Shown: in pieces, positions 27,249 to 52,985 of the stretch | Layout: every line of letters starts with the position of its first letter | How positions within the stretch are numbered: position 1 is the stretch's first letter | DNA from: Desulfurivibrionaceae bacterium | GTDB lineage: Bacteria; Desulfobacterota; Desulfobulbia; Desulfobulbales; SURF-16 | Length of the DNA: 64,000 bases | Direction of reading: 5' to 3' | Assembly (NCBI GenBank): GCA_046537975.1 | Contig: JBKHJR010000003.1 | Span: 6,677 to 70,676, forward strand | The notes under the pieces: model-generated | What the model was told of the DNA's origin: nothing | The model's database searches: none | What the model saw: the letters and a program-made list of their open reading frames with translations, nothing else | Program-made: the position numbers and the translations under genes

Positions 27249-27794
27249 ATGCACCCTGGATACAAATACCTGACACAGGATCAGCCTTCTCCTGAAATCA
27301 TGGCTATACTGGGCAAAATGCCAGACCGGTGGGGGCGTATGGATCAGATCAGCCGGCTTGTACTGGTGGAAGTGGGCCGGACCCTGAAAGAATACGGCCT
27401 GCTGGACAGTAATAGCAGATCCCTGCCCCCCTCCCAAACAGTGGGCCTGGTGGCAGGGACCCGTCGGGGATCCCTCACTACAGACCTTGCCTACTGCGCT
27501 TCCCTGCAAAAAGGGATAAATCATGCCAGCCCCGCCCTCTTCAGCTACACCCTGGCCAATATCTCCCTGGCCGAAGCCGCGGTCCATTACAGTCTGACCG
27601 GCCCGGTTTACGCCCTTTTCAGCAAACAGCCGTACGAAGACGCCCTGCAGGAAGCAAAGCGCTGGCTCAATACCGTTAATTATCCTTTGCAGATAGTTGC
27701 CGGTCAAGTGGATGTTTTCCCGGACATAACATCCCCGCTTTTATCTCATAAGATGGAAGAATACCAAACAGGGGCCAGATTTGTAGTGCTATAA
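27249..27794 (+). CDS. truncated ketosynthase-like protein (KS N-terminal half only; Gln at the active-site Cys position)
   Basis: 181 aa. Aligns by eye with ORF 34521-35273 and with the KS active-site region: GPVYALFSKQ versus GPAAVITNAC (KS 33283) and GPAYTLTNYC (34521). No His-His half. Confidence 0.6.
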   Translation: MHPGYKYLTQDQPSPEIMAILGKMPDRWGRMDQISRLVLVEVGRTLKEYGLLDSNSRSLPPSQTVGLVAGTRRGSLTTDLAYCASLQKGINHASPALFSYTLANISLAEAAVHYSLTGPVYALFSKQPYEDALQEAKRWLNTVNYPLQIVAGQVDVFPDITSPLLSHKMEEYQTGARFVVL

Positions 27795-27877
27795 ATTTTC
27801 AGCGGTTGCCCCCACCTTCCGGAAAGATATTGCATTTCTGATCTGAGGGTATAATATTTCCGGTATAATTCAGGATC

Positions 27878-27925
27878 CCGGAATTTCAGACTACCCGATC
27901 CCGACAAGTTGACTAAAAAAGGGTC
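27878..27925 (-). repeat. dispersed intergenic repeat family, truncated copy D
   Basis: CCGGAATTTCAGACTACCCGATCCCGACAAGTTGACTAAAAAAGGG matches the left end of copy C (CCGGAATAATTTCAGACCACCTGAGCCCGACAAGTTGACCAAACAAAAGGG). The rest has diverged. Confidence 0.6.
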
Positions 27926-27994
27926 AACGATCCTCTCATTTTGTGAAGAAATGAACTCCACTAACAAAGTCTAACATTCAAATTTTTAAAATTT

Positions 27995-29281
27995 ATGCCC
28001 CATATAACCATAATTTATCCGGAATGGACCAAGATACCGGAACAGACCGAATTCCATCTCCCCCCTCACGCTCCGGTATGTCTGGCCGCCGAGATCCCGG
28101 AAGACTATGAGGTCTCTTTCATCGATGAAAACATGGACCCTGTCGACCCGGACAACCGGACCGATCTGATCCTGCTCTCCATGATGCTAACCTGCCAGAT
28201 CCCCAGGGGGCTGGAAATTGCCGCTGCTTACCGGAATAGAGGGATCAAGGTGATCGCCGGGGGAATTGCCACCATGCTTCATGCCGAAGAGGTGGCTGAA
28301 CATGTGGACTCTGTCTTTCTGGGCGAGGTGGAAGGCGGCCGTCTGACCAGGGTTCTGGAACACTGGCGGGAAAACAACCTGAAGCCGCTCTATAACTACT
28401 TCCGGGATTTTCCGGAAACAGAGGAGATTGGTCCGGCCCGCCGCGACATTCTCAACTACGATCACTACGTCTACCGGGGGATGCCCATGGTTGATCTGGT
28501 CCATGCCTCCCGGGGCTGCAAGTTCAACTGTTTTCCCTGCGCCACCGCCTATCTGGGAGGGCGCACCTTCAGACCCCGGCCCATGGCCAGGGTTGCCGAA
28601 GAACTGGAAGGAATTGACAATAATCGCCTGTTCCTGGTGGACAACTCCCTGGCCCAGGATCGGGACTGGGTACTGGAACTGTTTTCCGTCCTGGAGTCAT
28701 TAGGGAAAAAATGGATCAGTCACCCGATTCTGGACGAAGAAAAAGTAATTGCCCGGGCAGCCAAGGCAGGATGCTGGTTTGTTTATCAGGCTGTTTTTGA
28801 CACCTCGGAGGTGATACGCAACCGGGTAAAAAGGCTCAAAGATCATGGTATAGGAGTGGAAGCCGCAGTTCTCCTGGGACCTGACAATCAGGACGCCGAC
28901 TACATAAAAAGACTTATCGATTTTCTCCTGGAAATTGATGTGGACATGGCGGAATTCTCCATACTGACTCCCTTCCCTCACACCCCGATGACAAAACAGT
29001 TCAAAAAGGAAGGCCGAATACTGCATAACGACTGGCGAAAATATACCACCAGTGAGGTCTGCTTTCAGCCTAAACACATGACTCCGGATGAACTTCAGGA
29101 GATGTATCATTATGCCTGGCAGGCCTTTTATCAGGAAAAAAGTCAATCCCTGCGCATGGCCCGGCTCTTCCATAAGGTGGTAAAAAAAGAAATAGCAGAC
29201 AACAGCTGGCGCTCTCCCATCGACCTTTCCCAGAAACGCCGGAAATGGCAAGAAACCAGGGGAACCGGCAATGGGGATTAA
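27995..29281 (+). CDS. B12-binding-domain radical SAM enzyme (class B) #1
   Basis: 428 aa. N-terminal Rossmann-like B12-type domain (DLILLSMM...KVIAGGI...FLGEVEG) and a CxxxCxxC motif (RGCKFNCFPC). Confidence 0.85.
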   Translation: MPHITIIYPEWTKIPEQTEFHLPPHAPVCLAAEIPEDYEVSFIDENMDPVDPDNRTDLILLSMMLTCQIPRGLEIAAAYRNRGIKVIAGGIATMLHAEEVAEHVDSVFLGEVEGGRLTRVLEHWRENNLKPLYNYFRDFPETEEIGPARRDILNYDHYVYRGMPMVDLVHASRGCKFNCFPCATAYLGGRTFRPRPMARVAEELEGIDNNRLFLVDNSLAQDRDWVLELFSVLESLGKKWISHPILDEEKVIARAAKAGCWFVYQAVFDTSEVIRNRVKRLKDHGIGVEAAVLLGPDNQDADYIKRLIDFLLEIDVDMAEFSILTPFPHTPMTKQFKKEGRILHNDWRKYTTSEVCFQPKHMTPDELQEMYHYAWQAFYQEKSQSLRMARLFHKVVKKEIADNSWRSPIDLSQKRRKWQETRGTGNGD

Positions 29282-30605
29282 CTGCCTGCTTATCTCAACA
29301 AACCAGGTGGAAGAACCCTACCCTGTCTATCCCCTGGGAGTTGCCCATCTGATGGGAGCTTTGGAGGCCGGTGGTCACAGCAGTAAACATTTTGACCTTC
29401 TGGCCGGGGGAGGCACCGAAGCCCTTGCCGGTTTTCTGCAGGACTCCTCTTTTGACCTCATCTGCCTCTCTATCCGTAATATAGACACCATGGACTGTAA
29501 CTGTCCCCACCATCTTCTGGGAGACACTCAAAAAACCATGGCGATTATCAGGAGGTCATCGGGTGCCCCGGTGGTGGTGGGAGGGCCTGCCTTCTCCATC
29601 ATGCCGGAAGAAATAATGGAATTAATCCAGGCAGACTACGGGGTGGTTGGCGAAGGGGAAAGCGCCCTTGTCCGGCTGGCCGACAGCATGGAGAGGGGGA
29701 CGGCCATTGCAAAAGGGATCATCCATCCCCGCCCCCGAAAATACCCCTGGAGACAGACCGCCTATCAAAAGGAAAACATGGCTTACTACCTCCGGAATGG
29801 CGGGATGCTGAACATTCAGACCAAGAGGGGCTGCCCCTACCGGTGCGCCTACTGTTCCTATCCCAATCTGGAAGGAAGGCATTACCGCTTCCGGGACCCG
29901 GAAGAGGTGGCGGACGAAGTACGAAGGTTGAACCTGGAGCTGGGGGCGGACTATATCTTTTTTTCCGACTCCACCTTTAATGACAATCAGGACCACTTTC
30001 TCCAAGTCGCTGAGGCCCTGATCAAAAATGACAACCATGTCCCCTGGTGCGCCTTTTTCCGGCCCCGGAACCTCTCAGCCGGGGCCTTGGCCCTGATGAA
30101 AAAAGCAGGGCTGGCCGCCATGGAGATGGGGACCGACGCCGCCTGCGACCGCACCCTGGAGGGCCTGGGTAAAGGCTTCACGTTCGGCGAGGTGATCGAT
30201 AATCACGAATTAACAGTGGCCCAGAACATCCCATGCGCCCATTTCATTATTTTCGGCGGCCCCGGGGAAGACCGGGACACCATTAAAGAAGGGCTGGCCA
30301 ATCTCGACCGCCTGCGCAACACCGTGGTCTTTGCCGGAGCCGGAATCAGAATACTTCCCGGTACTGAAATATATAAGAAAGCTCTGGCCGAGGGACTTGT
30401 TGGTCAAAATCAGTCCCTGCTGGATCCGCTCTTTTATTTCTCTCCCGGGATCAGCCGCGAGGAAGTGGATCAGGAACTGAAAAACGCCTGGCAAAAGAGA
30501 TTTGACCGGGTATACCCCTTTATGGGAATGCAGCAAAGGATCAACCACCTGCACAAAAAAGGCTATAAAGGCCCGGTCTGGGATAATCTGCTGGTAAGAA
30601 GATAA
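29271..30605 (+). CDS. B12-binding-domain radical SAM enzyme (class B) #2
   Basis: 444 aa. B12-type domain (DLICLSIRNIDT...VVVGGPAFS...VVGEGE) and CxxxCxxC (RGCPYRCAYC). Overlaps the previous gene by 11 nt. Confidence 0.85.
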   Translation: MGINCLLISTNQVEEPYPVYPLGVAHLMGALEAGGHSSKHFDLLAGGGTEALAGFLQDSSFDLICLSIRNIDTMDCNCPHHLLGDTQKTMAIIRRSSGAPVVVGGPAFSIMPEEIMELIQADYGVVGEGESALVRLADSMERGTAIAKGIIHPRPRKYPWRQTAYQKENMAYYLRNGGMLNIQTKRGCPYRCAYCSYPNLEGRHYRFRDPEEVADEVRRLNLELGADYIFFSDSTFNDNQDHFLQVAEALIKNDNHVPWCAFFRPRNLSAGALALMKKAGLAAMEMGTDAACDRTLEGLGKGFTFGEVIDNHELTVAQNIPCAHFIIFGGPGEDRDTIKEGLANLDRLRNTVVFAGAGIRILPGTEIYKKALAEGLVGQNQSLLDPLFYFSPGISREEVDQELKNAWQKRFDRVYPFMGMQQRINHLHKKGYKGPVWDNLLVRR

Positions 30606-30658
30606 TTCAAGATTTACTCCTGACCGGAAATTGTTTTTCCGGATCGGCAAGAACATCC

Positions 30659-31885
30659 ATGAAATATCAAAGAAACTGTGCTCCGCCATACGCTTCCCAC
30701 CGGACTTCACCGCTGAACCCCCTGATAGTTATCCCGGTATATAACCATGCCGCCACCCTGCCGGAAGTGGTCAACAGGTCCCTGGAGACCGGTTTCCCGG
30801 TTCTGGTGGTAGATGACGGCAGTACCGATCAGGGGACGGAACAACTCCGGAATCCGGGCTGCCGGATCTTAAAACTCGGCATCAACCGGGGCAAGGGGGC
30901 GGCCATCCTCGCCGGGGCCCGAAAGGCCTCGGAACAGGGTCATGATGCTGTAATTACCGTGGATGCCGACGGCCAGCATGACCCGGCTGAAACCTGCCTT
31001 CTGGTCCGGGAGGCGGAAAAGAACTGGCCTCTCATGGTCATCGGCTGCCGGGATATGTCCGGAGAAACAGTACCCCGCTCCAGCAGGTTCGGCCGGCTTT
31101 TCTCCAACTTCTGGGTGAGGCTGGAATGCGGCCGCGATCTTCCTGATACCCAGAGCGGCTTCCGCCTTTATCCTGTCCCGGAAATACTGGACTTAAATAT
31201 TGCCGGAAGCCGCTACGATTTCGAAGTAGAGGTTTTGACCAGGGCGGCCTGGGCCGGCCTTCCTATTAAATCCGTGCCGATTTCAGTCCATTACCCGGAG
31301 ATTGGAACCAGGATCTCCCATTTCAATCAGGTAAAGGATAATCTGCGCCTGACTTTCCTGCACAGCCGCCTGATCTGCCGGGCCCTGCTTCCCTGGCCCC
31401 ATAAAAAAATCATCGCTGAAAATCCGGCCGCCATTCAGGAACCGGAAAAACAGTCAATTTTTCATCCGGTAAAGCTCCTGAAAAGACTGTGCCTGGAACA
31501 CACCACCAGCCTTCAGCTGGCGGTGGCGGTCTGGGTGGGTATTTTTCTGGGGGCCCTGCCCCTGATAGCTGTTCATACAGTGGTAATTATCTATGTCTGC
31601 CACCGGCTCCACTTAAATAAACCGGCGGCGGTTGCTGCCAGCCAGATCTGCGCCCCGCCGCTACTGCCGGTAATATGTATCGAGACCGGCTATTTTTTGA
31701 GAAACGGGACCTGGCTGACCGAGGTTTCCTATGATATTCTTGTCCTGCAGATTCACCAGAGACTGTGGGAATGGCTGCTGGGCTCTCTTATCGTAGGACC
31801 GCTGCTGGGCCTGGTTGTCGCTTTTTCCGCCTATTTGGTTATCAGGTATCTACGCACTCTGGGCAAATCTTGTGTGAGAAAATGA
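30659..31885 (+). CDS. family-2 glycosyltransferase fused to a C-terminal membrane (DUF2062-like) domain
   Basis: 408 aa. GT2 motifs (VIPVYNH, VLVVDDGSTD, VDADGQHD), then 3-4 TM helices. Confidence 0.8.
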   Translation: MKYQRNCAPPYASHRTSPLNPLIVIPVYNHAATLPEVVNRSLETGFPVLVVDDGSTDQGTEQLRNPGCRILKLGINRGKGAAILAGARKASEQGHDAVITVDADGQHDPAETCLLVREAEKNWPLMVIGCRDMSGETVPRSSRFGRLFSNFWVRLECGRDLPDTQSGFRLYPVPEILDLNIAGSRYDFEVEVLTRAAWAGLPIKSVPISVHYPEIGTRISHFNQVKDNLRLTFLHSRLICRALLPWPHKKIIAENPAAIQEPEKQSIFHPVKLLKRLCLEHTTSLQLAVAVWVGIFLGALPLIAVHTVVIIYVCHRLHLNKPAAVAASQICAPPLLPVICIETGYFLRNGTWLTEVSYDILVLQIHQRLWEWLLGSLIVGPLLGLVVAFSAYLVIRYLRTLGKSCVRK

Positions 31886-32775
31886 TTGGTGGCATCCGAT
31901 TGGCCCAACGATTAGAGGCCCTGGGGCACTACATCTTTTATACGGTGATTATCCTGAGCGGCCAGCCCGGCGCCTATATTCTGCTGGCCCTGGTGATCTT
32001 TTCCTACACCCTGTTCAGCAGAAATATTCACAGAAAAACAGATTATTACCTGAGCCGCCGTTTTCCGGATAAATCCTGGGTCCGGCGCCGGCTGGACACT
32101 TTCAGGCTGGTCTACTCTTTTGGAAAGGTGCTGGTGGACAGGGCCTGGCTGGGTTTAAGGAAAAAAGCGGCCTTGGAAGGGAATTTCCCCGATCAATCCC
32201 TGCTTCTCCGGACCATAGAGGAAGGAAAGGGGGTTATCCTGCTTACCGCCCATGTAGGCAACTGGCAGACTGCTCTGGCCAATCTCACTGAACTTCCGGT
32301 GGCGGTTCACTCCCTCATGGAGTATGATCAGGAGGCTGTGGCCAAGCACTATTTCGATCTCAAGGACGGGCAGCGCCCCTTCCGGATCATCGCCAGTGAC
32401 GGTTTCCTGGGCGGCATGATCGAATCAACGGCAGCCCTGCAGCGCGGCGAAATCGTAACCATCATGGGAGACCGCTATGCCGGCGGGCCGGAGGTGGAAG
32501 TCGATTTTCTGGGCAGCCCGGTAAGGCTCCCGGCCACCCCTTATCAACTGGCGGCCTCGACCTCTGCGCCGATCGTGGTTCTCTTTGCCGCCAAAGAGGG
32601 GCAAAAAAAGTACTCCCTGAAAATCTGGGATATTTTCAGACCGGAGGCTGTAAACCGGCAAAACCGAGAGCGGGAGATCACCAAATGGGGACAGCGCTTT
32701 GCCTCTTCCCTGGAAAATTATCTGGCCCAACACCCTTACCAGTGGTACAATTTCTCCGATTTCTGGAAACAGTAA
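31882..32775 (+). CDS. LpxL/HtrB-type (lipid A biosynthesis-like) lysophospholipid acyltransferase
   Basis: ATG at 31882 overlaps the GT2 stop (ATGA). N-terminal TM helix and an HVGNWQ motif resembling the HxGNWE of LpxL-family acyltransferases. The ORF-track start at 31765 lies inside the GT2 gene. Confidence 0.75.
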   Translation: MIGGIRLAQRLEALGHYIFYTVIILSGQPGAYILLALVIFSYTLFSRNIHRKTDYYLSRRFPDKSWVRRRLDTFRLVYSFGKVLVDRAWLGLRKKAALEGNFPDQSLLLRTIEEGKGVILLTAHVGNWQTALANLTELPVAVHSLMEYDQEAVAKHYFDLKDGQRPFRIIASDGFLGGMIESTAALQRGEIVTIMGDRYAGGPEVEVDFLGSPVRLPATPYQLAASTSAPIVVLFAAKEGQKKYSLKIWDIFRPEAVNRQNREREITKWGQRFASSLENYLAQHPYQWYNFSDFWKQ

Positions 32776-32850
32776 GAAAAGGGCCATATCAAGACCTAAG
32801 ACCCTGCACCTGGAACTTAACCCCTCTCAATCAAGAGATCTAAGCTAATT

Positions 32851-33111: not shown

Positions 33112-33282
33112 CTACAGCCGGTTTCTGCCTGATTAGCTGGTAAAATCTCTCTTCCGCGCACAGGGAACAGAAAGGACAGGGTTTTCCCTGAATGACAAAA
33201 CCAATTTTTGGCGCCCTATTCTTTGCAAGCAATTATAACTTATTACGAAAACAGCAAGACTTGTTGAAAGAAAATATTCTGA

Positions 33283-34524
33283 ATGAATAAAAAGCTGCAC
33301 AACAGAGTCGCCGTCTCCGGGACAGGCTGTATATCCGGGGCAGGGCGAGATGTCAGGGCCCACTGGGACAGTCTCTGTAACAGAAGGATAAATTGCGGCC
33401 CTGTTCCGGAATGGCTGTTTGCAACCGACCTTCCCTACCCGGTTTTTACGGCTCCGGCGGAATGCAGTCATCCTGAACAGGACCTTTATTTCCCTTATCT
33501 TCCCCCCCGCCCGGAAAACGAGATCAACCGGACAATACTTCTGGTGATTAACGCGGCTGTACAGGCCCTGCTGCAAACCGGTTTGTCTTTAGAGGAATTA
33601 AAGATGAAAAATGTAGGCATGGTGTTCGGCACCACCGTGGGCTGCACTTTTAATAACGAAGATTACTACTCCGCCTGGCGCCGGGGGGAAAAACCCGATC
33701 CGGAGCCGGTAAATCGCTATCTCGCCGGCAACCTGGCCTCTGCCCTCCAGTCTTTTTCCGGAATCAAGGGGCCGGCAGCGGTGATCACCAATGCCTGCGC
33801 CTCAGGAACTGATGCCATCGGCCTGGCCCGCAACTGGATCCTTTCCGGCCTTTGCGATCTGGTTATTGCCGGAGGGGGGGATGAACTCTCCAGAATTGCC
33901 TACAACGGTTTCACCAGCCTGCAGCTGACTTCAAAATCTCCCTGCCGCCCTTTTGACCGGGACCGGGACGGATTGAATCTGGGGGAAGGGGCGGCGGTCC
34001 TGATCCTGGAACCGGAAAGCAGGTGCCGTGAGCGGGGGAGTTCTACCCTGGGCTGGCTTCGGGGTTACGGTGCGGCAAATGATGCCTATCATCCCACTGC
34101 CCCCCATCCACAGGGCCGTGGCCTGAAAGCGTCTTTGGATATGGCCCTGGAGCAGATTGAGGGAGAGCGAAAAATCTCCTATCTAAACAGCCATGGAACA
34201 GGGACTCCGAGCAATGACCCGGCTGAGATGAAGGGCCTGCAATCTTCTTCTGCATACATAGAGAATGCGGCAATCGTTTCAAGCAAGGGTCTCACCGGTC
34301 ACACCCTGGGGGCGGCCGGGGCCTTGGAGGCAATTTTCACCCTGCTCTCCCTGAATGAAGGTTTTACCCCCGGTTCAGCCGGCTGCAGTCATCCCGACCC
34401 GGAACTTGCCCTATCTCCCCTGACCCGGGGAGAAAACCGGGAACTGGCCGGCAGCCTGGGACTGAGTACCTCGCTGGCCTTTGGCGGCGGCAATAGTGCC
34501 CTGATACTGGAGAGAGCCAAATGA
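33283..34524 (+). CDS. beta-ketoacyl-ACP synthase (KS I/II type) #1
   Basis: 413 aa. Active Cys ITNACASGTDA, His motifs SHGTGTPSND and GHTLGAAG. Confidence 0.9.
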   Translation: MNKKLHNRVAVSGTGCISGAGRDVRAHWDSLCNRRINCGPVPEWLFATDLPYPVFTAPAECSHPEQDLYFPYLPPRPENEINRTILLVINAAVQALLQTGLSLEELKMKNVGMVFGTTVGCTFNNEDYYSAWRRGEKPDPEPVNRYLAGNLASALQSFSGIKGPAAVITNACASGTDAIGLARNWILSGLCDLVIAGGGDELSRIAYNGFTSLQLTSKSPCRPFDRDRDGLNLGEGAAVLILEPESRCRERGSSTLGWLRGYGAANDAYHPTAPHPQGRGLKASLDMALEQIEGERKISYLNSHGTGTPSNDPAEMKGLQSSSAYIENAAIVSSKGLTGHTLGAAGALEAIFTLLSLNEGFTPGSAGCSHPDPELALSPLTRGENRELAGSLGLSTSLAFGGGNSALILERAK

Positions 34525-35273
34525 GCAGGATCCAGATATCCTCCATAGCTCTAAACGAAAATCAAAACCCGCAGACTTCATTTGCCCGGGAACTGAGGCG
34601 GGCTGACGGTTTCACAAGCCTGGCCGTTACAGTCGCCGAACAGGCTCTTGCCGGACTCAACCCCCATGATGACAGGGGGGAGACCGGGATATTTATCGGC
34701 ACAGCTTTCGGTCCCCTGGCTACCAATTTTGCCGCCCTTGATACCCTGCTCGATGACGGGGAAGGGCAGATGTCCCCTACCCTGTTTTCCCATTCGGTTT
34801 TCAATACCGCCGCCGGTTATATAAGCCGGCTCTTTAAACTCCGGGGACCGGCCTATACCCTGACCAACTACTGCTGGCCTTTCTTCCTGGCCCTGCGGGA
34901 AGGAAAGACCGCAGTGGAACACGGGATAATCAGGAGGGCGGTGGTACTGGAAGTGGAAATATACAGCCGGATCCTGACCGAGGCCGGACAACGGTCAAAG
35001 GGGGAAGACTTCCCCGTCCTTGTACCCGGCGCAGTCGCCTGGATACTCGAGGACGAAACTGACACCGGCAATGAGCCTGTAGGTCTTCTTGATTCCCTGG
35101 AATTCGAGGAATACGATGTCGCCCCGGAAGAATTCCTTTCCCCTCGCCCTCTGGAGCATTCATTTGCTGTCAGCCGCACCGCCCGGCAGTTAAAAAAACT
35201 CCCCGGCCAAAAAGAGTCATGGTGTGCTGAAGAGCTGTTCGGCAAGGCCCGGGTTGACCTGCAGTCTCCTTGA
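34521..35273 (+). CDS. truncated ketosynthase-like partner protein (chain-length-factor-like, N-terminal half only)
   Basis: 250 aa. ATGA overlap with the KS gene. GPAYTLTNYC aligns with the KS active site, but the His-His C-terminal half is missing. Confidence 0.7.
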   Translation: MSRIQISSIALNENQNPQTSFARELRRADGFTSLAVTVAEQALAGLNPHDDRGETGIFIGTAFGPLATNFAALDTLLDDGEGQMSPTLFSHSVFNTAAGYISRLFKLRGPAYTLTNYCWPFFLALREGKTAVEHGIIRRAVVLEVEIYSRILTEAGQRSKGEDFPVLVPGAVAWILEDETDTGNEPVGLLDSLEFEEYDVAPEEFLSPRPLEHSFAVSRTARQLKKLPGQKESWCAEELFGKARVDLQSP

Positions 35274-44558: not shown

Positions 44559-44589
44559 TCTACTCTACTCAAGAAAACATTTACCCAAA

Positions 44590-45183
44590 ATGCGTCTTTC
44601 CCTCAGAGAAATATTTCTTCTGGCCTGTATTGTTTTTTCCACTTTCGGGTGTGCGCAGCAACATCTCTTCTGTGATATTCCGGAACATTATCTGGCAATG
44701 CCGGCTGATCAGATCAAGGAGGAAATTTCCCTTCTGGAAAAAAGAATTGCCGCAGGTCCGGGCAGTAGCACCCAGGAGAAGTTACTCCCTGAAGATTATT
44801 ACAACCTGGCCCTTCTCTACTCTCATCATAACAACGCCTCCCCTGATTACAGCAAGGCACTCAAGGCCCTTGACCGCTACACCCGGAATATACCGCCGCA
44901 CAGGAAAGAGTATGACGTTATCTATCTGGAGAATCTCCTGAAGGATCTGGAAGGCTTAGTCCAGATCAAAAAAGGATACGTCCAGCTTCAAGGGGAACAC
45001 ATCGAACTTGAAGAAAATTATGCCGAGCTGCGCCGGCTGTTGGATGAACTGATTCAAGAGTATGATAACCTGATGCAGGAGCATGGCAACCTGATTCAGG
45101 AGCACCGGGACACCAAAGAAACCCTCGAGCAGCTCAAGAGGCTCGATATATGGCTGGAACAGAAAAAGCGGGAAATCAAGTAG
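44590..45183 (+). CDS. hypothetical lipoprotein with C-terminal coiled-coil repeats
   Basis: 197 aa. Lipobox FSTFGC. C-terminal repeats LIQEYDNLMQEHGNLIQEH. Confidence 0.55.
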   Translation: MRLSLREIFLLACIVFSTFGCAQQHLFCDIPEHYLAMPADQIKEEISLLEKRIAAGPGSSTQEKLLPEDYYNLALLYSHHNNASPDYSKALKALDRYTRNIPPHRKEYDVIYLENLLKDLEGLVQIKKGYVQLQGEHIELEENYAELRRLLDELIQEYDNLMQEHGNLIQEHRDTKETLEQLKRLDIWLEQKKREIK

Positions 45184-45839: not shown

Positions 45840-46097
45840 CTAACCTGAAGCCCTAATAAACTCAGCCAGGCTGGAAAGGCTGGCCAGAACCTGGCGGCTG
45901 TTTTCCTCTGAGCCTATGTGGACATTGTACATTTTCTGAACCGCCACCACAATTTCCACGGCATCCAGGGAATCTATTCCCAGGGGGGATTCGGGTCCGA
46001 TCAGGGGGGCATCCAGGTCATAATCTTCCGGAACCTCCCCCGGCAGGTTGCAGATTTCATATATCATCTCCAGGAGTACCCTCTCCAGTTTTTCCAT
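45840..46097 (-). CDS. acyl carrier protein #3
   Basis: 85 aa, LGIDSLDAVEIVV phosphopantetheine site. Confidence 0.85.
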   Translation of the reverse strand: MEKLERVLLEMIYEICNLPGEVPEDYDLDAPLIGPESPLGIDSLDAVEIVVAVQKMYNVHIGSEENSRQVLASLSSLAEFIRASG

Positions 46098-46176: not shown

Positions 46177-47481
46177 TTATCTGCGGGCAAACAGGGCGGA
46201 CAGGGCCAGCAGCAGGGTAACGGCAAAAAAAGAGAAAAGCAGAGCCAGTTCCCGGCCAATAGAGACCAGACCGGTCTGCCGGACCAATATATCGTGAAAA
46301 GCGGCCAGGCTCCAGCCCAAGGGTGAGATTACACTGATATCCTGCATGAAATCAGGCATGGCGTAAACCGGAACCATGACTCCTCCTATTGCCGCAGCCA
46401 GGACCACGGCGATGGCTCCCAGCATGGAGGCCTGTTCAAAACTGCGGCAGACCGCACCCAGCAGGATCCCGAAGCCTATGGCTGCCAGGGAGCTGCCCAG
46501 GACAATGAGAATAACGGCAAGGGCCTGTCCCGGCTCAATTATAAAAGGGGTGGTTCCCAGCCAGGGCAGCAGAAAACGGCCCAGAATAACGATCAGACCG
46601 AACTGGCAGAAACAGATGATCAGGTAAGCAAACACCTTACCGCCCATAAAGGTAAAAGGGGAAACAGGCAGACTCAAAAGCCTGATCCAGACCCCTGAAC
46701 CCCTTTCCCTCAGCAGGGAACCGGCCAGAGGCACCACCACAAAAAACATACCGAATAGAGCCCAGGCCGGAACATTCTGCTGGACTGCATCGGGGATCTG
46801 CAGGACCCCCCGGCCTGAGGCGGCCCTGCCCTCCAGTCTGATCAGGGGCTCGGCCCCCCAGTCCGGTTCAGCGGAGGTCATTTCCTTCATGGTGTCGGGG
46901 ACGGGATAACCGGCCTCCTGAAAACCGGCCTGCAGTGCAGCGGAAAAGGCCTTTATCTTTTCCTCCACTTCGTACTCCAACAAGACAAGGCGGAAGACAG
47001 TCAGCATGTTCCGGCGAAAGCCCGGAGAAACCGTGGGATCAAAATAGACCGGAAGCTCCGGCAGAGCGGCGGTCTCAATTCTACCCCCTTTATTCATTAC
47101 GCTCTGGACCTGTCTCTTCGCTTGCCGGCTCACGGTCCGGCTTGTTCCCTCTGGTATCAAAAGACAGAGCTGATAACGGCCTTCAGCCACCATCTTTAAG
47201 GCCTTCTTTTTTTCCAGGTCCTGGTTATCCGAACCGCTGATCATCCGGACCCGGCTGTTTTCCTCCAGACGATTTTTAAGCCGTTCCCCCAGTCCCCGGC
47301 GCTCCTGATCAACAAGAAGGACCGAAGTGCTGCTCTCTCCCATTATCTTCAGGACATTCTGCTGAACCAGGGTAATCACCACCACCAGGACCGCGGGCAT
47401 CAGAAAAAGAACCAGCAGCCCGGCCCGGTCCCGCCGGAGCAGAAGGATTTCCTTCCAGATTGTTGTCCCTAACCTAATCAT
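46177..47481 (-). CDS. ABC-2-type transporter permease
   Basis: About 434 aa from MIRLGTTIWKE. N-terminal TM helix, a large extracytoplasmic loop and 5 C-terminal TM helices, as in the ABC-2 family. The start overlaps the ATPase stop by 8 nt. Confidence 0.8.
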   Translation of the reverse strand: MIRLGTTIWKEILLLRRDRAGLLVLFLMPAVLVVVITLVQQNVLKIMGESSTSVLLVDQERRGLGERLKNRLEENSRVRMISGSDNQDLEKKKALKMVAEGRYQLCLLIPEGTSRTVSRQAKRQVQSVMNKGGRIETAALPELPVYFDPTVSPGFRRNMLTVFRLVLLEYEVEEKIKAFSAALQAGFQEAGYPVPDTMKEMTSAEPDWGAEPLIRLEGRAASGRGVLQIPDAVQQNVPAWALFGMFFVVVPLAGSLLRERGSGVWIRLLSLPVSPFTFMGGKVFAYLIICFCQFGLIVILGRFLLPWLGTTPFIIEPGQALAVILIVLGSSLAAIGFGILLGAVCRSFEQASMLGAIAVVLAAAIGGVMVPVYAMPDFMQDISVISPLGWSLAAFHDILVRQTGLVSIGRELALLFSFFAVTLLLALSALFARR

Positions 47482-48229
47482 CGCGGAGTTTCCTGCCGGT
47501 AAAATGGAAAAAAAGTTCACTCAGATCGGCACAGCCGGCCTGCTTTTCCAGTTCAGCCGGAGGGCCGGTGGCTATTATCCTGCCCTGGTCGATAACCGCT
47601 ACCCGGTCACAGTTCTGTTCCGCCTCTTCCATGTAATGGGTGGTATAGATCAGGGTGGTCCCGGTCCGGCGCAGATCCACCAGACGGTCCAGGATCAGCT
47701 GCCTGGACTGGGCGTCGATCCCCACCGTGGGTTCATCCAGGATAAGGAGGCGGGGGCTGTGCAGGAGGGCGGCGGCAAGGTTCAACCTTCTTTTCATGCC
47801 ACCGGAAAAGGAATCCACGGTACGCTCCGCCTGGCCGCTCAGACCGGTGAGCTCAAGACAATCCGCAATCCTGTTATCAAGGTTCCGGCCCTTCAGGCCC
47901 TGGAGCCTGCCGAAAAAGGTCAGGTTTTCCCTGCCGGTCATCTCGGCATAAAGGGCGATGTCCTGGGGAACCAGACCGATATCCTTCTTGAACTTTCCGG
48001 ACTTGCCGGAAAGCCGATTCCCCAGCAGGTTAACTTCTCCGCGGTCCGGCCGCAAGACCCCGGCCAGGATGGAGATCGCCGTGGTCTTGCCCGCGCCGTT
48101 GGGCCCCAGGAGGCCGAAACACTCCCCGGACCTGACGGTCAGATCAATATCGTTTAAGGCCGGCCGGCTGCTCCGGGGATACTGTTTGCTTAAGGATCGG
48201 GCCTCAACTACGTTTTCCTTTTGCTCCAT
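47474..48229 (-). CDS. ABC transporter ATP-binding protein (ABC-2 exporter partner)
   Basis: ATG at 48229 (MEQKENVVEAR). Walker A GPNGAGKTT, signature FSGGMKRRL, Walker B LLILDEPT. The upstream extension to 48373 overlaps the preceding gene. Confidence 0.88.
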   Translation of the reverse strand: MEQKENVVEARSLSKQYPRSSRPALNDIDLTVRSGECFGLLGPNGAGKTTAISILAGVLRPDRGEVNLLGNRLSGKSGKFKKDIGLVPQDIALYAEMTGRENLTFFGRLQGLKGRNLDNRIADCLELTGLSGQAERTVDSFSGGMKRRLNLAAALLHSPRLLILDEPTVGIDAQSRQLILDRLVDLRRTGTTLIYTTHYMEEAEQNCDRVAVIDQGRIIATGPPAELEKQAGCADLSELFFHFTGRKLRDD

Positions 48230-48245
48230 GGATGCCGACTCCGCT

Positions 48246-49265
48246 CTAACCGGTAAAGGAAAGAAGTTCCTGATAGACCCCGGCTTCCCGGCGGGCGCAG
48301 TCTTCCAGGATGTCGGCCATCCTGTCATAGCTGTCTTCCTCCCCTGCCCTGCCCTTGCAGATACGGGCGGCAATCACGGCGAATTCCCGCCAGCGGTCTC
48401 CCGCTTCAGTCAGCCGGCGGGAGCATTGGAGCAGTTTATCATCGGAGTAGATCTCCGCCGCCTCCTGCAAAAAAGCGGCATAAATGAAACGAAAACCCCC
48501 GCCTCCGGTGCCGATCTCCTCCTGCATCCTGACCACCTGCCCCAGGATAAGGGCTGCTTTTTCCCGGCCCGAACGCCGGGGCCATTTTCTCATCCTGGAG
48601 GCCAGGAACCTGATACCCCTCACCCCTATCAAAGGAACAGGGGCCTTCACCATCATTTTGCAGACATGCCTGATCCCGTCCGCCACACCCCTGCTGTATT
48701 CGGCACAGGAAGGTACCCGGTCCGGGAAATACATCCTCCCTTTGGGGGCCAGAGGCCCTTTGGCAAAACGGGCCCTTGCCAGATCCTCTGCGGAGCAGAC
48801 CACCGGGGATGGAAAAACCGGGTCGCTTATGAGATAGTCGCTGCCCCGCCTGCCATACACCACCAGATTGTGGGCATTGAAGTGAAACCGGAAAGAACGG
48901 GGAAAATAGGGGAGCCAGAACACCCCGGTCTGCAGGCCCACCGGTATGTTGGCGGCAAGGGCCCGGTCCAGGGCGGCCATTGCTTTTCCGGGACTGGAAA
49001 ACTTCTCTTCTCTGACCCTGAATCCCACATTGCGGGCAACTCTCTTCAGGATGCTGCCGGCGGCACTGCGATAGGTAATAAGAGGTAGTCCGTTTATATA
49101 AATAAAGGGGAAGTAGCCGAAAAAAAGCCCTCCCCCCATACCGAAGACCATGGCCTCGGAAACGGGAAGTCCCTGATGCTGCATCAGGTTGGCGACCACC
49201 CCGCTCTCGCAGTGGGCGGTCTGCCGGTGATGAAAATCTATGGTTATGTCACCATCCTCACTCAA
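48246..49265 (-). CDS. BtrH_N/DUF4872-like papain-fold protein (putative ACP-dependent acyl transferase)
   Basis: 339 aa. N-terminus HHRQTAHCESGVVANLMQHQGLPVSEAMVFGMGGGLFFGY matches my recollection of the butirosin BtrH N-terminal domain with its catalytic Cys. Confidence 0.6.
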   Translation of the reverse strand: MSEDGDITIDFHHRQTAHCESGVVANLMQHQGLPVSEAMVFGMGGGLFFGYFPFIYINGLPLITYRSAAGSILKRVARNVGFRVREEKFSSPGKAMAALDRALAANIPVGLQTGVFWLPYFPRSFRFHFNAHNLVVYGRRGSDYLISDPVFPSPVVCSAEDLARARFAKGPLAPKGRMYFPDRVPSCAEYSRGVADGIRHVCKMMVKAPVPLIGVRGIRFLASRMRKWPRRSGREKAALILGQVVRMQEEIGTGGGGFRFIYAAFLQEAAEIYSDDKLLQCSRRLTEAGDRWREFAVIAARICKGRAGEEDSYDRMADILEDCARREAGVYQELLSFTG

Positions 49266-49678
49266 TTATCATATACCCCTTTGAGCAGTTCCCAGTTGGC
49301 CAGTTGCTCCGTTGTGACGGAAAAAACAGCGGCATAGCGCTTAAGAATCCCGGGTTTAAGCCTATTGAAAAAAGCCGGCCGCAGATGAAGCTTTACCCGC
49401 CAGCGGGAAAGACCGCAATAACGGGCCAGCAGGGTTGTATCCATCTGATTGACCGCCATGTAATAAAGCAGGGGGCTGGCCCGGCCCTTTTCCACTTTCT
49501 CCCGGGCCCGGGCACTCTCCTTCTCAATAGCCTCCCAGGCCTGGCGGTTCACCACATTCACCGCCTCCCAGCCTTTACTGGGTGTTAATTCATAAGAACC
49601 GTTATCATTGACCGCATAACGTATTTCACTAACCCCTTCGGTAATGCCGGTTTCCTGGGGGACTTCCTCTTTTTTCAT
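49262..49678 (-). CDS. hypothetical protein
   Basis: 138-aa ORF, coupled to its neighbours (4-nt overlap downstream, 2-nt gap upstream). No family recognised. Confidence 0.5.
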   Translation of the reverse strand: MKKEEVPQETGITEGVSEIRYAVNDNGSYELTPSKGWEAVNVVNRQAWEAIEKESARAREKVEKGRASPLLYYMAVNQMDTTLLARYCGLSRWRVKLHLRPAFFNRLKPGILKRYAAVFSVTTEQLANWELLKGVYDN

Positions 49679-49680
49679 TA

Positions 49681-50271
49681 TCAGTCCCGGATTTCCCTCA
49701 CCTTGTCATCATCATTGAAGCGGACTTCAATGGTATCAAACCGGTTCTTCCAGAATTTCCAGACGTCGGAGTCAAGGGAACTGGTTCCGGTTTCCGGCGG
49801 GTGTCCCCAGCTGACCAGGACCGCTTCCCTGGACATGCCCAATACCACGTCCCCTGTTTTGATGGCCTCTTTCTCTTTACCGGTCATGCCTTGGGTCATC
49901 TCCTCAAAACTCCGGGAAGTGAGAAGCCGGTCCATGTAATCCTGGGCGCTTATCCCGGGATGATGCTTGGGATTAAAATAGGCATAGTACGTCTGGTTAT
50001 CCTCCACTCCGGTAAAGGACACCACCGGATAACCGCTTTTCTTGCCCAGCTTGATATTCTTGACCCTGGTCCCCGCCGGGATAAGACGCCCCACCTGGTA
50101 ACCGGTGGACCAGATCTCCCCGTTCTCTATCCAGACATTATGGGCCAGATATTTCCGGGTGTCGGCGGACAGTTCCTTGGTCCACTTCGCCTTTCCGCAC
50201 CCCTGATTGCCCAGGATTAACAGAAATGCTGCGGCCACCAGAATGAGATTTGCTAAAAGTTTACTTTTCAT
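49681..50271 (-). CDS. hypothetical lipoprotein (C-terminal SmpA/OmlA-like segment)
   Basis: 196 aa. Lipobox LGNQGC. C-terminal GDVVLGMSREAVLVSWGHP resembles BamE/SmpA-type lipoproteins. Confidence 0.55.
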   Translation of the reverse strand: MKSKLLANLILVAAAFLLILGNQGCGKAKWTKELSADTRKYLAHNVWIENGEIWSTGYQVGRLIPAGTRVKNIKLGKKSGYPVVSFTGVEDNQTYYAYFNPKHHPGISAQDYMDRLLTSRSFEEMTQGMTGKEKEAIKTGDVVLGMSREAVLVSWGHPPETGTSSLDSDVWKFWKNRFDTIEVRFNDDDKVREIRD

Positions 50272-50355
50272 AATTACCTCCTCAACTGTTTTTGTTCAGA
50301 GTCATATCTCTCATACAGTTTATAGTTCAAGGAGTACAATTTCCAGTCCAAATAC

Positions 50356-51843
50356 TCAGGGCTTATCTCTGCCGGGCTCACTATTAAGCTCCGGGGCCCG
50401 GGAGCCCAGTCTCCTGTTGCTCCTGGCAAATTTCAGGAAATCCAGGCCGTTTTTCAGAAACCGCCGCCAGCTGTCCGGGGAGTGATAAAGCATGGCCGCA
50501 TACCCCAGGAGAACCCGGGGCCTCTTGAAGTGCTTTCTGTAAAAATCAATGAACAGTTCATCCAGACGCTCGCGGCTCAAGCCTTCAGGAATAAAGAGAA
50601 AACTCATACAGTCCATGCCCTGCCAGTCTTCGGTAAACTCCCCCAGTTCATGGATCTTATTATACAAGGGGGAGCCGGGAAAAGGAGTGAACTTGGCCAG
50701 GTTAAAATCATCGATGGGCAGGGAAAAGACATAATCCATGCTCTTTTTTATGCTCTCCTCGGTTTCCCCGGGCAGTCCCATCATCAAAAGTCCTTTGGTG
50801 CGGATACCGTGTTTCTTGATGAGCCGGATCTTTTCGGCCAGCATTCCCAGGTCGGCATTCTGCCGGTGCCTGGCCAGGAGATTCTCATCTCCGGTTTCAA
50901 TCCCCAGACTGATCATCCAGCAGCCCCCCTTCTTCATCAGGGCCAGCAGCTCAGAATCGATGTGTTCCGCCCTGACCGCGCAGTTAAAGGTCATGCCCAG
51001 GGGGTGCTCGATCAACTTGGTCATGAGCTCTTCCACCCGTTCCCGTTTGAAAGTGAACTGGTCATCGTAGAAGTTGATATGTTTGATATTGAAGCGCTGC
51101 TTCAGATGCAGCATGTGTTGATAAAGATATTCGGCGGAGTTGTAGCGGAAAGTGCGGCGGAAAACCGAACGGTCGCAGTAGCTGCAGGCATAAGGACAGC
51201 CCCGGCTGGAGGTACAGCTGGTGTTGGGGGTCCGGGGGTAGTTGAAGATGGGCAGGGTGTAGGTCTCCGGATAACCGGCCAGCTTCTCATAGGCCGGAAA
51301 GGGCAAAGAGTCCAGATCCAGCTGGGGCTCCCGGTAGCCGCTAAAGAATGGTTCCCCCTCCCTGCGGAAGATGATCCCCGGGATCTTTTCCAATTCTCCG
51401 CCCTCGCTTCTTATGAGTTCCCTGAGGGTCTCCTCCCCCTCACCGGCAACGATAACATCCACCTCCGGATAGTCGGTCAGAAGCTGCTCCCTGAGAGCGG
51501 AGACATGGGGTCCCCCGAAAACCGTCTTGATTCCGGGCATTATTCCGCGGGCCATTGCCGCCAGCCTGACCCCGTCCAGGAAACTGGAGGTGGTGCAGCT
51601 GAAACCGATAAAGGCGGGCTTATGGGAGACAAGGTACTCCCTGATAAGCCTGTCGCTCTCCGGCCTGGCATAACAGTCGATTATATCAGCCCTGATTCCT
51701 TCCTGTTCCAGGTAAGAGGCAATGCCGGCCAGCCCCAGAGGAGGCATGATATTTGCCATCCGGGAAATATCATGCCCGGCGGCTGCAGCCTGATAACCCA
51801 GGGGGTGGACCAGCAGTATCCGGCGGTAATCCAGTTTATTCAT
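50356..51843 (-). CDS. B12-binding-domain radical SAM enzyme (class B) #4
   Basis: 495 aa. B12-type domain (FIGFSCTTSS...TVFGGPHVS) and CxxxCxxC (RGCPYACSYC). Confidence 0.85.
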   Translation of the reverse strand: MNKLDYRRILLVHPLGYQAAAAGHDISRMANIMPPLGLAGIASYLEQEGIRADIIDCYARPESDRLIREYLVSHKPAFIGFSCTTSSFLDGVRLAAMARGIMPGIKTVFGGPHVSALREQLLTDYPEVDVIVAGEGEETLRELIRSEGGELEKIPGIIFRREGEPFFSGYREPQLDLDSLPFPAYEKLAGYPETYTLPIFNYPRTPNTSCTSSRGCPYACSYCDRSVFRRTFRYNSAEYLYQHMLHLKQRFNIKHINFYDDQFTFKRERVEELMTKLIEHPLGMTFNCAVRAEHIDSELLALMKKGGCWMISLGIETGDENLLARHRQNADLGMLAEKIRLIKKHGIRTKGLLMMGLPGETEESIKKSMDYVFSLPIDDFNLAKFTPFPGSPLYNKIHELGEFTEDWQGMDCMSFLFIPEGLSRERLDELFIDFYRKHFKRPRVLLGYAAMLYHSPDSWRRFLKNGLDFLKFARSNRRLGSRAPELNSEPGRDKP

Positions 51844-51899
51844 GTCCGATTATACTCTTCCTGTCTTTTTATAAGTTTTTTTATCCCCGAAACCTGCGG

Positions 51900-52985
51900 C
51901 TATCCATCTGTCCCGGCCTCGATTAACAGGGCTGCATTTATACCGCCAAAACCGGAGTTGCAGGTCAGGATAGAAGGATATTGAAGGGCCTGTTCCCTTA
52001 CTCCGGAAACCGGCCAATGCTCTTTTTCCGGAACAGCCAGTCCCGCAGTGGGCGGAATCTTTCCCTCCCGGAGGGCCTTAACCGCCAGAGCTGCTTCAAT
52101 AACCCCGGCCGCTCCCAGGGTGTGGCCGATACTTCCCTTGACTGAATGAATCGGGACTCCTCCCTCAAACAGGCTATCCATAGCCACCATTTCCATGGCA
52201 TCATTATAAACCGTCCCGGTACCATGGGCATTGACCGCCCCCACTTTTCGGCTGCCATACTCAATTGCCTGCTCGACGGAACTAATCAGGCCCCCGGCCT
52301 CCCGGCAGGGAGCGGTAATATGCCGGGCATCGCAGGCAGCCCCCCAGCCCTGCAACAGAGGGGAGGAGCTATCCCCTGCAGTCAGGAGAAGATAACCGGC
52401 CCCTTCCCCCAGGGACAAACCGTCCCGATCCCGGTCAAAAGGCCGGGCCCCCTCCCGGGACAGGGCATGCAGCCTGGAAAAACCGGCCTGAACAAATCTG
52501 CCTGCCAGATCAAGGCCCACCACCAAAACAGACTGGGCCTCCCCGCTTTTGATCTGCTGGGCCGCGTTTATAACAGCCAGGGTCCCTGAGGCGCAGGCGG
52601 CACTGACCGTGAGCGGCCGGCCCACGGTACCCGCCTTCCCGGCGATGATCCCGCCCAGATCCCAGGGCTGGCCCTCCCAATGGTCCGGTTCCGGAGCAAG
52701 GAGCTCATCAGAGGCACCTTTGGTGGTGGCTGCAACCAGACCGGTATTTTCAGGGAGAACGGGCAGATCAGCCATAAGCCGGTTCAACAGGTGGTCCAAC
52801 CTCTCCCCGCTACCCGGACTCCCCTCCAGATCAGGGATCAAGGCAGCCGGCCAACGGGCCAGATCCTCATCCAGACCCTTCCGGGTAATGGCGGATCGCC
52901 CCTGCCTAAGTCCCTGCCAGGTGCTTTCCAGATCCCCCAGCGCCGTCACCACACCGGCAGCCTCAATCGTTATCTTACCAGTCAT
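51900..52985 (-). CDS. beta-ketoacyl-ACP synthase #3 (short, 361 aa)
   Basis: Active Cys VSAACASGTLA, AHGTGTVYND and GSIGHTLGAAG. First gene of the minus-strand arm. Confidence 0.88.
   Translation of the reverse strand: MTGKITIEAAGVVTALGDLESTWQGLRQGRSAITRKGLDEDLARWPAALIPDLEGSPGSGERLDHLLNRLMADLPVLPENTGLVAATTKGASDELLAPEPDHWEGQPWDLGGIIAGKAGTVGRPLTVSAACASGTLAVINAAQQIKSGEAQSVLVVGLDLAGRFVQAGFSRLHALSREGARPFDRDRDGLSLGEGAGYLLLTAGDSSSPLLQGWGAACDARHITAPCREAGGLISSVEQAIEYGSRKVGAVNAHGTGTVYNDAMEMVAMDSLFEGGVPIHSVKGSIGHTLGAAGVIEAALAVKALREGKIPPTAGLAVPEKEHWPVSGVREQALQYPSILTCNSGFGGINAALLIEAGTDG

Follow-up and report, generated by a model that had tools for sequence, protein, structure and literature searches.

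What does a cluster that joins ketosynthases and acyl carrier proteins (ACPs) to several radical S-adenosylmethionine (SAM) enzymes make in a member of the Desulfurivibrionaceae? The question is raised by a 64-kb stretch of DNA from contig JBKHJR010000003.1 of a Desulfurivibrionaceae bacterium (hereafter the window, to whose positions all cluster coordinates refer). Its open reading frames (ORFs) were listed and scanned with Pfam and NCBIfam profiles. With a probability of about 0.6, the region 26475-52985 is a Desulfobulbales variant of the aryl-polyene (APE)/flexirubin-type pathway to outer-membrane lipids, joined with a dialkylresorcinol (dar) module and carrying five radical SAM tailoring enzymes. 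The product class (a radically tailored APE/resorcinol lipid) can be inferred, but not the structure. The cluster as such is real, forms a coherent whole and is conserved; it has two identities, that of an unsolved "ladderane-like" cluster and, by homology, that of a pathway of the APE/flexirubin/dar type.

A preliminary description of the locus had reported a plus-strand arm and a convergent minus-strand arm. Its gene list stands: every gene named in either arm is present, intact and correctly typed in Pfam and NCBIfam scans, except that the ABC ATPase of the minus arm had not been itemised separately from the ABC-2 exporter. All 24 cluster genes are intact and of full length. The core gene order had been likened to APE clusters, and this resemblance holds in direct comparison with real APE and flexirubin clusters; what had escaped notice is that DarB, DarG, DarH, the ABC genes, an ACP and a ketosynthase (KS) make up a dar module. 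With this module recognised, flexirubin and arcuflavin, not plain APE, are the closest known systems. Curated cutoffs are exceeded for the families TIGR04072, StlD/DarB, DarH, DarG_fam, PRK09184 and PRK05350.

The plus arm ends with the gene for a StlD/DarB-family head-to-head condensing KS (KAS III; 41645-42799), which reaches 554.4 bits with NF005293 (cutoff 450) and is 52% identical to DarB of the darABC operon on a Burkholderia pseudomallei plasmid; its start is most likely 41645 rather than 41525. The further dar genes lie on the minus strand. They encode ACP3 (darC-like, 45840-46097, PF00550), an ABC-2 permease (darI-like, 46177-47520) and an ABC ATPase (darF-like, 47474-48240, true start probably near 48240), both assigned by Pfam and NCBIfam, the BtrH-related acyltransferase DarH (like Azoarcus darE, 48246-49265; NF053550, 479.6 bits against a cutoff of 300, with BtrH_N and DUF4872), a DarG-family protein (like Azoarcus darD, 49262-49678; NF053536, 148.5 bits against a cutoff of 70) and KS3, a short but full KS resembling both darJ and AmcF (51900-52985, Cys131/His254/His288). 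This arm is collinear with darD-E-F-I-C-J of the dar cluster of Azoarcus sp. BH72, a strain that with its arc and dar clusters makes arcuflavin, an APE/dialkylresorcinol ester. Canonical darABC systems (Pseudomonas, Burkholderia; StlC/StlD of Photorhabdus) share DarB and a dedicated ACP with the window, but here a B12-binding radical SAM gene stands in the position of the aromatase DarA, of which just two Desulfurivibrio species retain a homologue.

This occupation of DarA's place is the most interesting specific point of the locus. The enzyme concerned, an HpnR/BchE-like B12-binding radical SAM protein (B12hpnR; 40321-41616, plus strand, assigned by NCBIfam), is encoded directly upstream of DarB. 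Of the 21 species loci that contain DarB, 19 show this arrangement, with both genes on one strand. The remaining two, both from Desulfurivibrio species, have no B12hpnR and carry at that place a DarA homologue that is 47% identical to the product of the gene before darB-acpP in B. pseudomallei, so that the two genes are mutually exclusive upstream of DarB (19 loci versus 2). The presumed DarA of B. pseudomallei is not recognised by any NCBIfam model; silence of NCBIfam is thus uninformative, and tblastn and phmmer were used instead. DarA is known as the aromatase converting DarB's carboxy-cyclohexanedione, with decarboxylation. From this role and the position of B12hpnR we infer that the radical SAM enzyme either takes over that step or acts on a ring that has not been aromatised, and the flavodoxin-like aromatase appears to have been replaced by it.

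Two reference clusters were compared directly with the window, one of the flexirubin type from a Persicobacter plasmid (L088: Persicobacter psychrovividus plasmid pPP6, 157 kb, with the complete cluster at 6844-29389 of the locus) and an APE cluster on an Enterobacter plasmid. The former contains genes for a tyrosine ammonia-lyase (TAL), FabG, KS, ACP, an acyltransferase, a methyltransferase, a thioesterase, a KS-like protein, a 194-aa protein, ACP, KS, chain length factor (CLF), LolA, a DUF2062 protein, PlsC-MMPL, an FAD oxidoreductase and an AMP ligase. On the plus strand of the window, a fusion of a family 2 glycosyltransferase (GT2) with DUF2062 (30659-31885, Pfam), which resembles the lipid-anchor glycosyltransferase ApeJ, is 33% identical over its full length to the Persicobacter DUF2062 protein and 36% to the Enterobacter APE GT2. 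The LpxL/PIM-type lipid acyltransferase behind it (31882-32775; PF03279 and NCBIfam) shares 28% with the flexirubin-cluster acyltransferase. ACP1 of the ApeE type (PRK09184; 32851-33111; NF006617, 72 bits against a cutoff of 70) is 46% identical to the L088 ACP that precedes KS and CLF, and the order is the same: the ApeO-like full ketosynthase KS1 (33283-34524; Cys172/His304/His340; 32% identical to its reference) follows, and then a truncated ApeC/CLF-like partner of 250 aa (34521-35273; partial PF00109 and PF13723). KS2, a full PRK09116-like and ApeR-like ketosynthase with Cys-His-His (35537-36772; NF006587, 390.6 bits, under the cutoff of 470), shares 34% with the L088 KS that has an ACP next to it, again in the same order, since ACP2 of the ApeF type (PRK05350; 36772-37056; NF003757, 70.2 bits against a cutoff of 65) comes directly after KS2. 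The gene of a PlsC-type, ApeD-like acyltransferase (37013-37816; PF01553; start codon uncertain, ORF opening at 37001) is followed by that of an adenylate-forming FlxY/PaaK-like ligase (37867-39162; NF053551 FlxY, 430.7 bits, under the cutoff of 520), which is 39% identical to the L088 AMP-binding protein and presumably activates the starter acid. KS3 aligns with the L088 KS-like gene over its full length (32%), and the 194-aa protein encoded beside this KS-like gene matches homologues of the window's KS fragment, a CLF-like N-terminal piece of 181 aa (27249-27794; PF00109 partial). Ketoreductase (KR) and FAD oxidase of related loci likewise match the reference clusters.

All three full ketosynthases keep Cys-His-His, and the DSLD motif is kept in all three ACPs. 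In alignment A2 the KS fragment has Gln in the column of the catalytic Cys, as the preliminary description had noted. KS3 is its likely partner, judging from gene neighbourhood, because the fragment adjoins KS3 orthologues in the Sumerlaeota loci L067, L068, L073 and L075. The 250-aa protein shares 33% identity with the fragment and lacks the entire C-terminal half with the two His residues. That it also lacks the catalytic Cys was considered and rejected: Cys is present in that column of the same alignment, and the orthologue of Desulfurivibrio alkaliphilus has Gly there. Reading of the sequence reproduced the gene overlaps described before, namely ATGA at 31882 (GT2 and LpxL-type genes), 34521 (KS1 and its partner) and 40321, TAATG at 36772, and 11 nt at 29271-29281.

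Arranged by system, the window shares with flexirubin and arcuflavin clusters the FlxY-like ligase, the ACP-KS-CLF and KS-ACP sub-orders, a KS with a small KS-fragment partner, GT2-DUF2062, LpxL-type and PlsC-type acyltransferases, DarB, DarG and DarH; its relatives have in addition an FlxB-like KR, an ApeP-like dehydratase (DH), a thioesterase, LolA-like and MMPL-like proteins and an FAD oxidoreductase. It differs by its five radical SAM enzymes, which have no counterpart there, and by the lack of TAL/XanB2, a class-I SAM methyltransferase (found in none of the related loci), DarA, KR and DH. Identities are just 26-46%, and the host of the window is a strict anaerobe with no reported pigment. 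Gammaproteobacterial APE clusters (apeA-S of E. coli/Xenorhabdus) resemble it in pairing one KS, ApeO, with a truncated CLF-like subunit, ApeC, and in having ApeR as a further KS, ACPs of both the ApeE (PRK09184) and the ApeF (PRK05350) type, the adenylating enzyme ApeH, the PlsC-type ApeD and the GT2 plus acyltransferase of ApeJ. They differ in that ApeQ, ApeI, ApeP, ApeK, ApeB, ApeL and ApeM are missing from the window, which has an ABC-2 pump and lipoproteins for export and adds the DarB module and the radical SAM enzymes.

A scan with one genome per species yielded 80 related loci, whose contexts of ±10 kb were analysed together with three annotated contexts, and every window protein was compared with all loci by tblastn. 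The loci belong to Desulfobulbales, Sumerlaeota and Desulfovibrionales, including Desulfobia (81%, closest), Desulfurivibrionaceae, Desulfopila, Desulforhopalus, Desulfotalea, Desulfosediminicola, Maridesulfovibrio and Pseudodesulfovibrio. Three modules recur in shuffled order. Module 1 comprises an extra KS, a CrtD-like FAD oxidase, KS2, ACP2, PlsC, the ligase and the SPASM-type radical SAM enzyme, while module 2 consists of a small envelope protein, the KS fragment, a divergent radical SAM protein, the TIGR04072 radical SAM enzyme, GT2-DUF2062, LpxL, ACP1, KS1, the truncated partner, an FlxB-like KR and an ApeP-like dehydratase. Module 3 holds a B12-binding radical SAM enzyme and DarB, then ACP3, the ABC-2 permease, the ABC ATPase, sometimes DarH and DarG, a B12-binding radical SAM enzyme, KS3 and a thioesterase. 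Most genomes have module 1 followed by module 2 and many have module 1 followed by module 3; the window has the order 2, 1, 3. KS3 comes after the truncated partner in five Desulfobulbaceae loci and beside the KS fragment in the four Sumerlaeota loci, the HpnJ/BchE-like radical SAM gene of the minus arm heads module 1 in D. alkaliphilus and D. dismutans, and locus L031 has SPASM, B12-binding radical SAM, DarB, DarG, DarH and ABC genes in a single co-directional run. That the radical SAM, KS and ACP genes are reshuffled yet retained speaks more strongly than any other observation for their being one system, whose members move as a set and are not neighbours by accident. The joint conservation of both arms with their radical SAM genes, on which the preliminary description had staked its cluster, is accordingly seen for these three gene classes across the 80 loci in varied orders, but the linkage is modular and the arms are separable. 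Two of the loci (L037 and L038) lie on contigs binned as "archaeon" and "Promethearchaeota archaeon", with a SPASM protein 64-67% identical to that of the window; the archaeal labels are probably due to binning contamination.

The five radical SAM proteins, four of the B12 type and one with a SPASM domain, all keep CxxxCxxC. The TIGR04072 enzyme (rSAM_ladder_B12, "lipid biosynthesis B12-binding/radical SAM protein"; 29271-30605, plus strand) matches its model over the full length with 578.9 bits (cutoff 360). Its next-best families are BzaD and TsrM, and the nearest solved structure is that of TsrM (6wte, 6e-26). The gene before it encodes a divergent B12-binding/radical SAM protein (27995-29281, plus strand; C175-x3-C179-x2-C182) whose matches to DUF4070, B12-binding and Radical_SAM are weak and all under the Pfam gathering scores, yet with 59-74% identity across orders it is among the best-conserved proteins of the cluster. 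Wherever both genes occur, that of the divergent protein lies directly before the TIGR04072 gene or overlaps it, and this constant adjacency suggests an obligate pair. The SPASM enzyme is AhbD/NirJ-like (39269-40324, plus strand), and its 12 cluster-ligand cysteines are all invariant in alignment A1. At E<=1e-30 over 3000 homologues are known, the best of them with 60-83% identity; where a source is named, these best ones come from Desulfobulbales/Thermodesulfobacteriota or simply from "Proteobacteria". As its gene comes after ligase or acyltransferase genes in all 80 loci, and does so even in genomes without DarB, such as Maridesulfovibrio, the SPASM enzyme was rejected as a DarA replacement. 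The fifth enzyme is HpnJ/BchE-like (B12hpnJ; 50356-51843, minus strand, Pfam/NCBIfam), and its orthologues elsewhere stand beside KS3 and ABC genes or head module 1. Sequence searches of the PDB gave just distant relatives for the radical SAM enzymes and none for DarH. Individual roles of these enzymes are leads, suggested by gene position and nearest relatives.

How does this fit with the "ladderane-like" label? Rattray et al. (2009; PMC2649909) described a cluster of Kuenenia stuttgartiensis, kuste3335-3352, that is syntenic with a cluster of Desulfotalea psychrophila, an organism containing unusual polyunsaturated hydrocarbons and no ladderanes. The published list for kuste3335-3352 names a glycosyltransferase, a phytoene desaturase, FabZ, FabG, two ACPs, two adjacent radical SAM proteins, a phenylacetyl-CoA ligase and three FabF-like genes. 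Two neighbouring radical SAM proteins, a glycosyltransferase, a protein like phenylacetyl-CoA ligase, two ACPs and several FabF-like proteins, some of them non-canonical, are likewise encoded in the window, and its relatives have FabG, a dehydratase and a phytoene-desaturase-like protein as well; the window differs by additional DarB, DarG, DarH, ABC genes and two more B12-binding radical SAM enzymes. This comparison rests on the TIGR04072 model and published gene lists. TIGR04072-like proteins form 646 clusters at 50% identity (E<=1e-30), with named members from Desulfomarina, Acidobacteriota/Aminicenantes and Desulfovibrio inopinatus. No anammox name was met in the 20 clusters looked up among the 150 best representatives, so that the anammox link rests on the family model and the literature. 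By these measures the window cluster belongs to the same family as kuste3335-3352 and its D. psychrophila counterpart, and the link that the preliminary description had drawn is correct on both counts, TIGR04072 membership and PMC2649909. The parallel between the gene lists means that the non-anammox "ladderane-like" clusters are, by content, APE/flexirubin-type clusters with radical SAM additions. Most likely, the window cluster does not make ladderanes. No new lipids appeared when the anammox genes were expressed in a heterologous host, where the two radical SAM proteins went undetected, and current ladderane work centres on the anammox-specific cluster kuste3603-3608; a review of 2026 still lists the radical SAM chemistry of ladderanes as unknown. 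In the Cariaco Basin "ladderane" biosynthetic gene clusters of Desulfobacterota and other phyla are expressed, with unknown function. The literature searched held no paper that assigns a product to the non-anammox versions, in agreement with the preliminary description, and none that connects such clusters with the chemistry of aryl polyenes, flexirubins or dialkylresorcinols. Genes for an FAD oxidoreductase and a polysaccharide deacetylase, similar to ones on the Kuenenia list, also occur in the Persicobacter locus L088.

On the APE/flexirubin/dar reading, the pathway might proceed as follows. The FlxY/ApeH-like ligase would load a carboxylic acid starter, probably aromatic, onto ACP1, and the SPASM enzyme may act on or near this starter unit. 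KS1 with its truncated partner, together with KS2, would extend carrier-bound chains, the reduction and dehydration steps being supplied by genes outside the locus. ACP2, KS2 and the PlsC-type enzyme probably serve a second acyl chain in the manner of ApeF and ApeD; in the published APE-lipid pathway the second ACP bears a second acyl chain, and ApeD (PlsC-type) and ApeJ (GT2/acyltransferase) anchor the product. Beta-keto and enoyl thioesters would come from ACP3 and from KS3, the latter probably in a pair with the 181-aa fragment, and DarB would join these thioesters head to head to a carboxy-cyclohexanedione. B12hpnR might then convert the ring by aromatisation and/or C-methylation, and DarH, being of the BtrH type, would move an ACP-bound acyl chain onto it, so that an ester resembling flexirubin or arcuflavin results. 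C-methylation of the aryl or polyene part is most likely the task of the TIGR04072 enzyme together with its divergent partner, as their nearest characterised relatives (BzaD and TsrM in the case of the TIGR04072 enzyme) methylate aromatic carbons. Finally, LpxL-type, PlsC-type and GT2-DUF2062 enzymes would anchor the products to a glycerolipid or sugar, and the ABC-2 pump and lipoproteins would carry them to the envelope. The membrane-anchored (glyco)lipid that had been proposed before agrees with the anchoring by ApeD and ApeJ in the published pathway.

Several observations weigh against this reading. KR, DH (ApeQ, ApeI/ApeP) and a CrtD-like oxidase were not found in the whole 64 kb, and therefore the locus alone cannot make a polyene. 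TAL is absent as a domain from the window, and none of the 80+ loci gave a match to it; a XanB2-type chorismatase domain was not found in the window either, although no search with a XanB2 sequence was made. As no starter-supply gene is present in the window or any related locus, the aromatic starter is assumed, not shown. The FlxY, DarB-exception and flexirubin_DarG equivalog models all score under their cutoffs, with 457.9 bits for the narrower DarB model (cutoff 550). A phmmer search with two DarA homologues against all window ORFs returned nothing at E<=10, and without DarA the ring may remain a cyclohexanedione. The literature searched contained no pigment or lipid from these organisms, and a single joint product of both arms is not proven.

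The last point leads to the alternative that two or three independent, often adjacent systems are present, namely an APE-like lipid cluster (modules 1 and 2) and a separate DarB module (with ACP, ABC pump and B12-binding radical SAM enzyme) that makes a free, exported dialkyl-cyclohexanedione or resorcinol, for example a signal or antioxidant, without any bond to the polyene. In the closest relative, MFS, purA and tat genes come after the plus arm and the minus arm is missing from that place, and Ca. Electrothrix scaldis (CP138355.1; L087, 7585-12436) has a stand-alone operon of ABC ATPase, ABC-2 permease, ACP, B12-binding radical SAM enzyme and DarB, apart from any APE-like genes; both findings count against a joint product. 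(Homologues of the DarB-linked radical SAM enzyme occur in the genomes of two Ca. Electrothrix cable bacteria.) The two arms of the window are also parted by a 3-kb insertion, and free dialkylresorcinols and cyclohexanediones are known end products elsewhere. We nevertheless consider independent systems rather unlikely, for DarH and DarG take their names from systems of the flexirubin type, where dialkylresorcinol and polyene are joined as an ester, KS3 and B12hpnJ of the minus arm stand inside APE-like modules of other genomes, and L031 unites SPASM, radical SAM, DarB, DarG, DarH and ABC genes in its co-directional run. Moreover, dar and flx genes of known flexirubin producers can be unlinked and still lead to one product.

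An anaerobic pathway to polyunsaturated fatty acids or hydrocarbons, as proposed by Rattray et al. (2009), or to a ladderane precursor, in which a KS/ACP chain is followed by desaturation, decarboxylation or cyclisation by radical SAM enzymes (and the phytoene-desaturase-like protein of relatives), would account for the TIGR04072 membership, the synteny of kuste3335-3352 with D. psychrophila and the unusual hydrocarbons of that organism. The nearest families of the SPASM enzyme are AhbD/NirJ-type oxidative decarboxylases, and most relatives have a CrtD-like oxidase. Yet the whole gene set maps to APE, flexirubin and dar systems, and the ligase, GT2-DUF2062, truncated KS, DarB, DarG and DarH would be needless for plain polyunsaturated fatty acids; with D. 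psychrophila free of ladderanes, these lipids now attributed to kuste3603-3608, and the desaturase-like gene missing from the window, such a pathway seems improbable. Most improbable of all is a decaying or non-productive remnant that has lost KR, DH, the extra KS and the oxidase in this lineage and makes nothing or shunt products. The window and its closest relative (L001/L084) both lack the extra KS (KS2'), CrtD-like oxidase, PagL-like gene, KR and ApeP-like DH that most other loci carry, and for KS2' and PagL this holds for the entire 64-kb window; the modules are rearranged, and a GGDEF gene has been inserted between the arms. Against decay stand the intactness of 24 out of 24 genes, the preserved catalytic residues and the tight translational coupling. 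Genes that share their arrangement with the relative are 64-84% identical, which fits purifying selection, and KR and DH could be encoded elsewhere in the genome or be replaced by FabG and FabZ. Supply in trans is thus favoured over decay. The absence of KR, DH, thioesterase and LolA/MMPL genes that the preliminary description had stressed is true of the window and peculiar to the locus of this lineage, since these functions are present in relatives: KR and DH in, for example, D. alkaliphilus, and LolA-like, MMPL/RND export and thioesterase (ApeK, L, M) matches in some related loci only.

For the APE/flexirubin/dar reading, the wider meaning lies in a family that genome-mining tools flag as "ladderane" in many anaerobic phyla and that has gained no product since it was first noticed in 2009. 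Its part-by-part homology to APE, flexirubin and dialkylresorcinol pathways points to UV-visible, membrane-bound polyene/resorcinol lipids, and cultivable carriers are at hand with Desulfurivibrio, Desulfopila, Desulforhopalus and Desulfotalea. One candidate cluster would leave the ladderane problem, and the field would be broadened if such lipids are acted on by four cobalamin-dependent enzymes together with a SPASM enzyme. Tentatively, and with more doubt than confidence, we go one step further: the cluster may stand for an undescribed class of envelope lipids of anaerobes, aryl-polyene/resorcinol conjugates tailored wholly by radical chemistry, in which a cobalamin radical SAM enzyme has displaced DarA and TIGR04072 enzymes tailor lipids instead of forming cyclobutanes. 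If true, oxidative decarboxylation/aromatisation or ring C-methylation of a carboxy-cyclohexanedione by a B12-binding radical SAM enzyme would be a new reaction for the enzyme class, and kuste3335-3352 would drop from the list of ladderane candidates.

The cluster starts at 26475, one gene before the position 27249 given previously. The gene at 26475-27239 (plus strand) encodes a lipoprotein of 254 aa (lipobox LAISGC) without Pfam or NCBIfam match; it was included because it ends 10 nt before the KS fragment and has homologues inside the cluster elsewhere, which in L052 and L059 have the SPASM gene on one side and the KS fragment on the other. It is a cluster-associated envelope protein. A second lipoprotein without family match (196 aa, 49681-50271, minus strand) has homologues inside the cluster in L045, L046, L053, L058, L059 and L062. 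Two genes at 43179-45183, a stretch of lower G+C content (0.46), lie in the spacer of about 3 kb between the arms. One encodes a HAMP-GGDEF protein of 459 aa, the other a coiled-coil lipoprotein of 197 aa, and both are missing from that place in relatives. The stretch resembles an insertion, because in relatives the convergent ACP gene follows within about 400 bp after DarB. Scans for promoter and terminator consensus sequences (26000-53600) gave counts near shuffled expectation and did not define operons. Neither a cobalamin riboswitch nor another Rfam family was detected inside the cluster, two tRNAs being the sole finds in the window.

Both flanks are unrelated to the cluster. Upstream lies a complete chemotaxis operon (16392-26450) with genes for a HEAT-repeat response regulator, a CheA-CheW-receiver fusion, a PilJ/CZB-type methyl-accepting protein, CheW, CheB and CheR, the last being separated from the first lipoprotein gene by 25 nt. 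Downstream follow gap, pgk, tpi and secG, and then a tRNA-Leu and an integrase island. The glyceraldehyde-3-phosphate dehydrogenase gene (53324-54538) is unusually long (404 aa) and scores 334.5 with TIGR01534 (cutoff 367.2); 392 residues align to the 330-position model, and the protein therefore carries insertions. Behind tRNA-Leu(GAG) (57041-57125) a tyrosine integrase (57457-58692) and several more genes extend to 63430, among them an AlpA-like gene (called on the matching contig), a 589-aa Toprim/AAA_25 primase-helicase-like protein (59855-61624) and an HTH protein, so that 57041-63430 looks like a mobile element integrated at tRNA-Leu.

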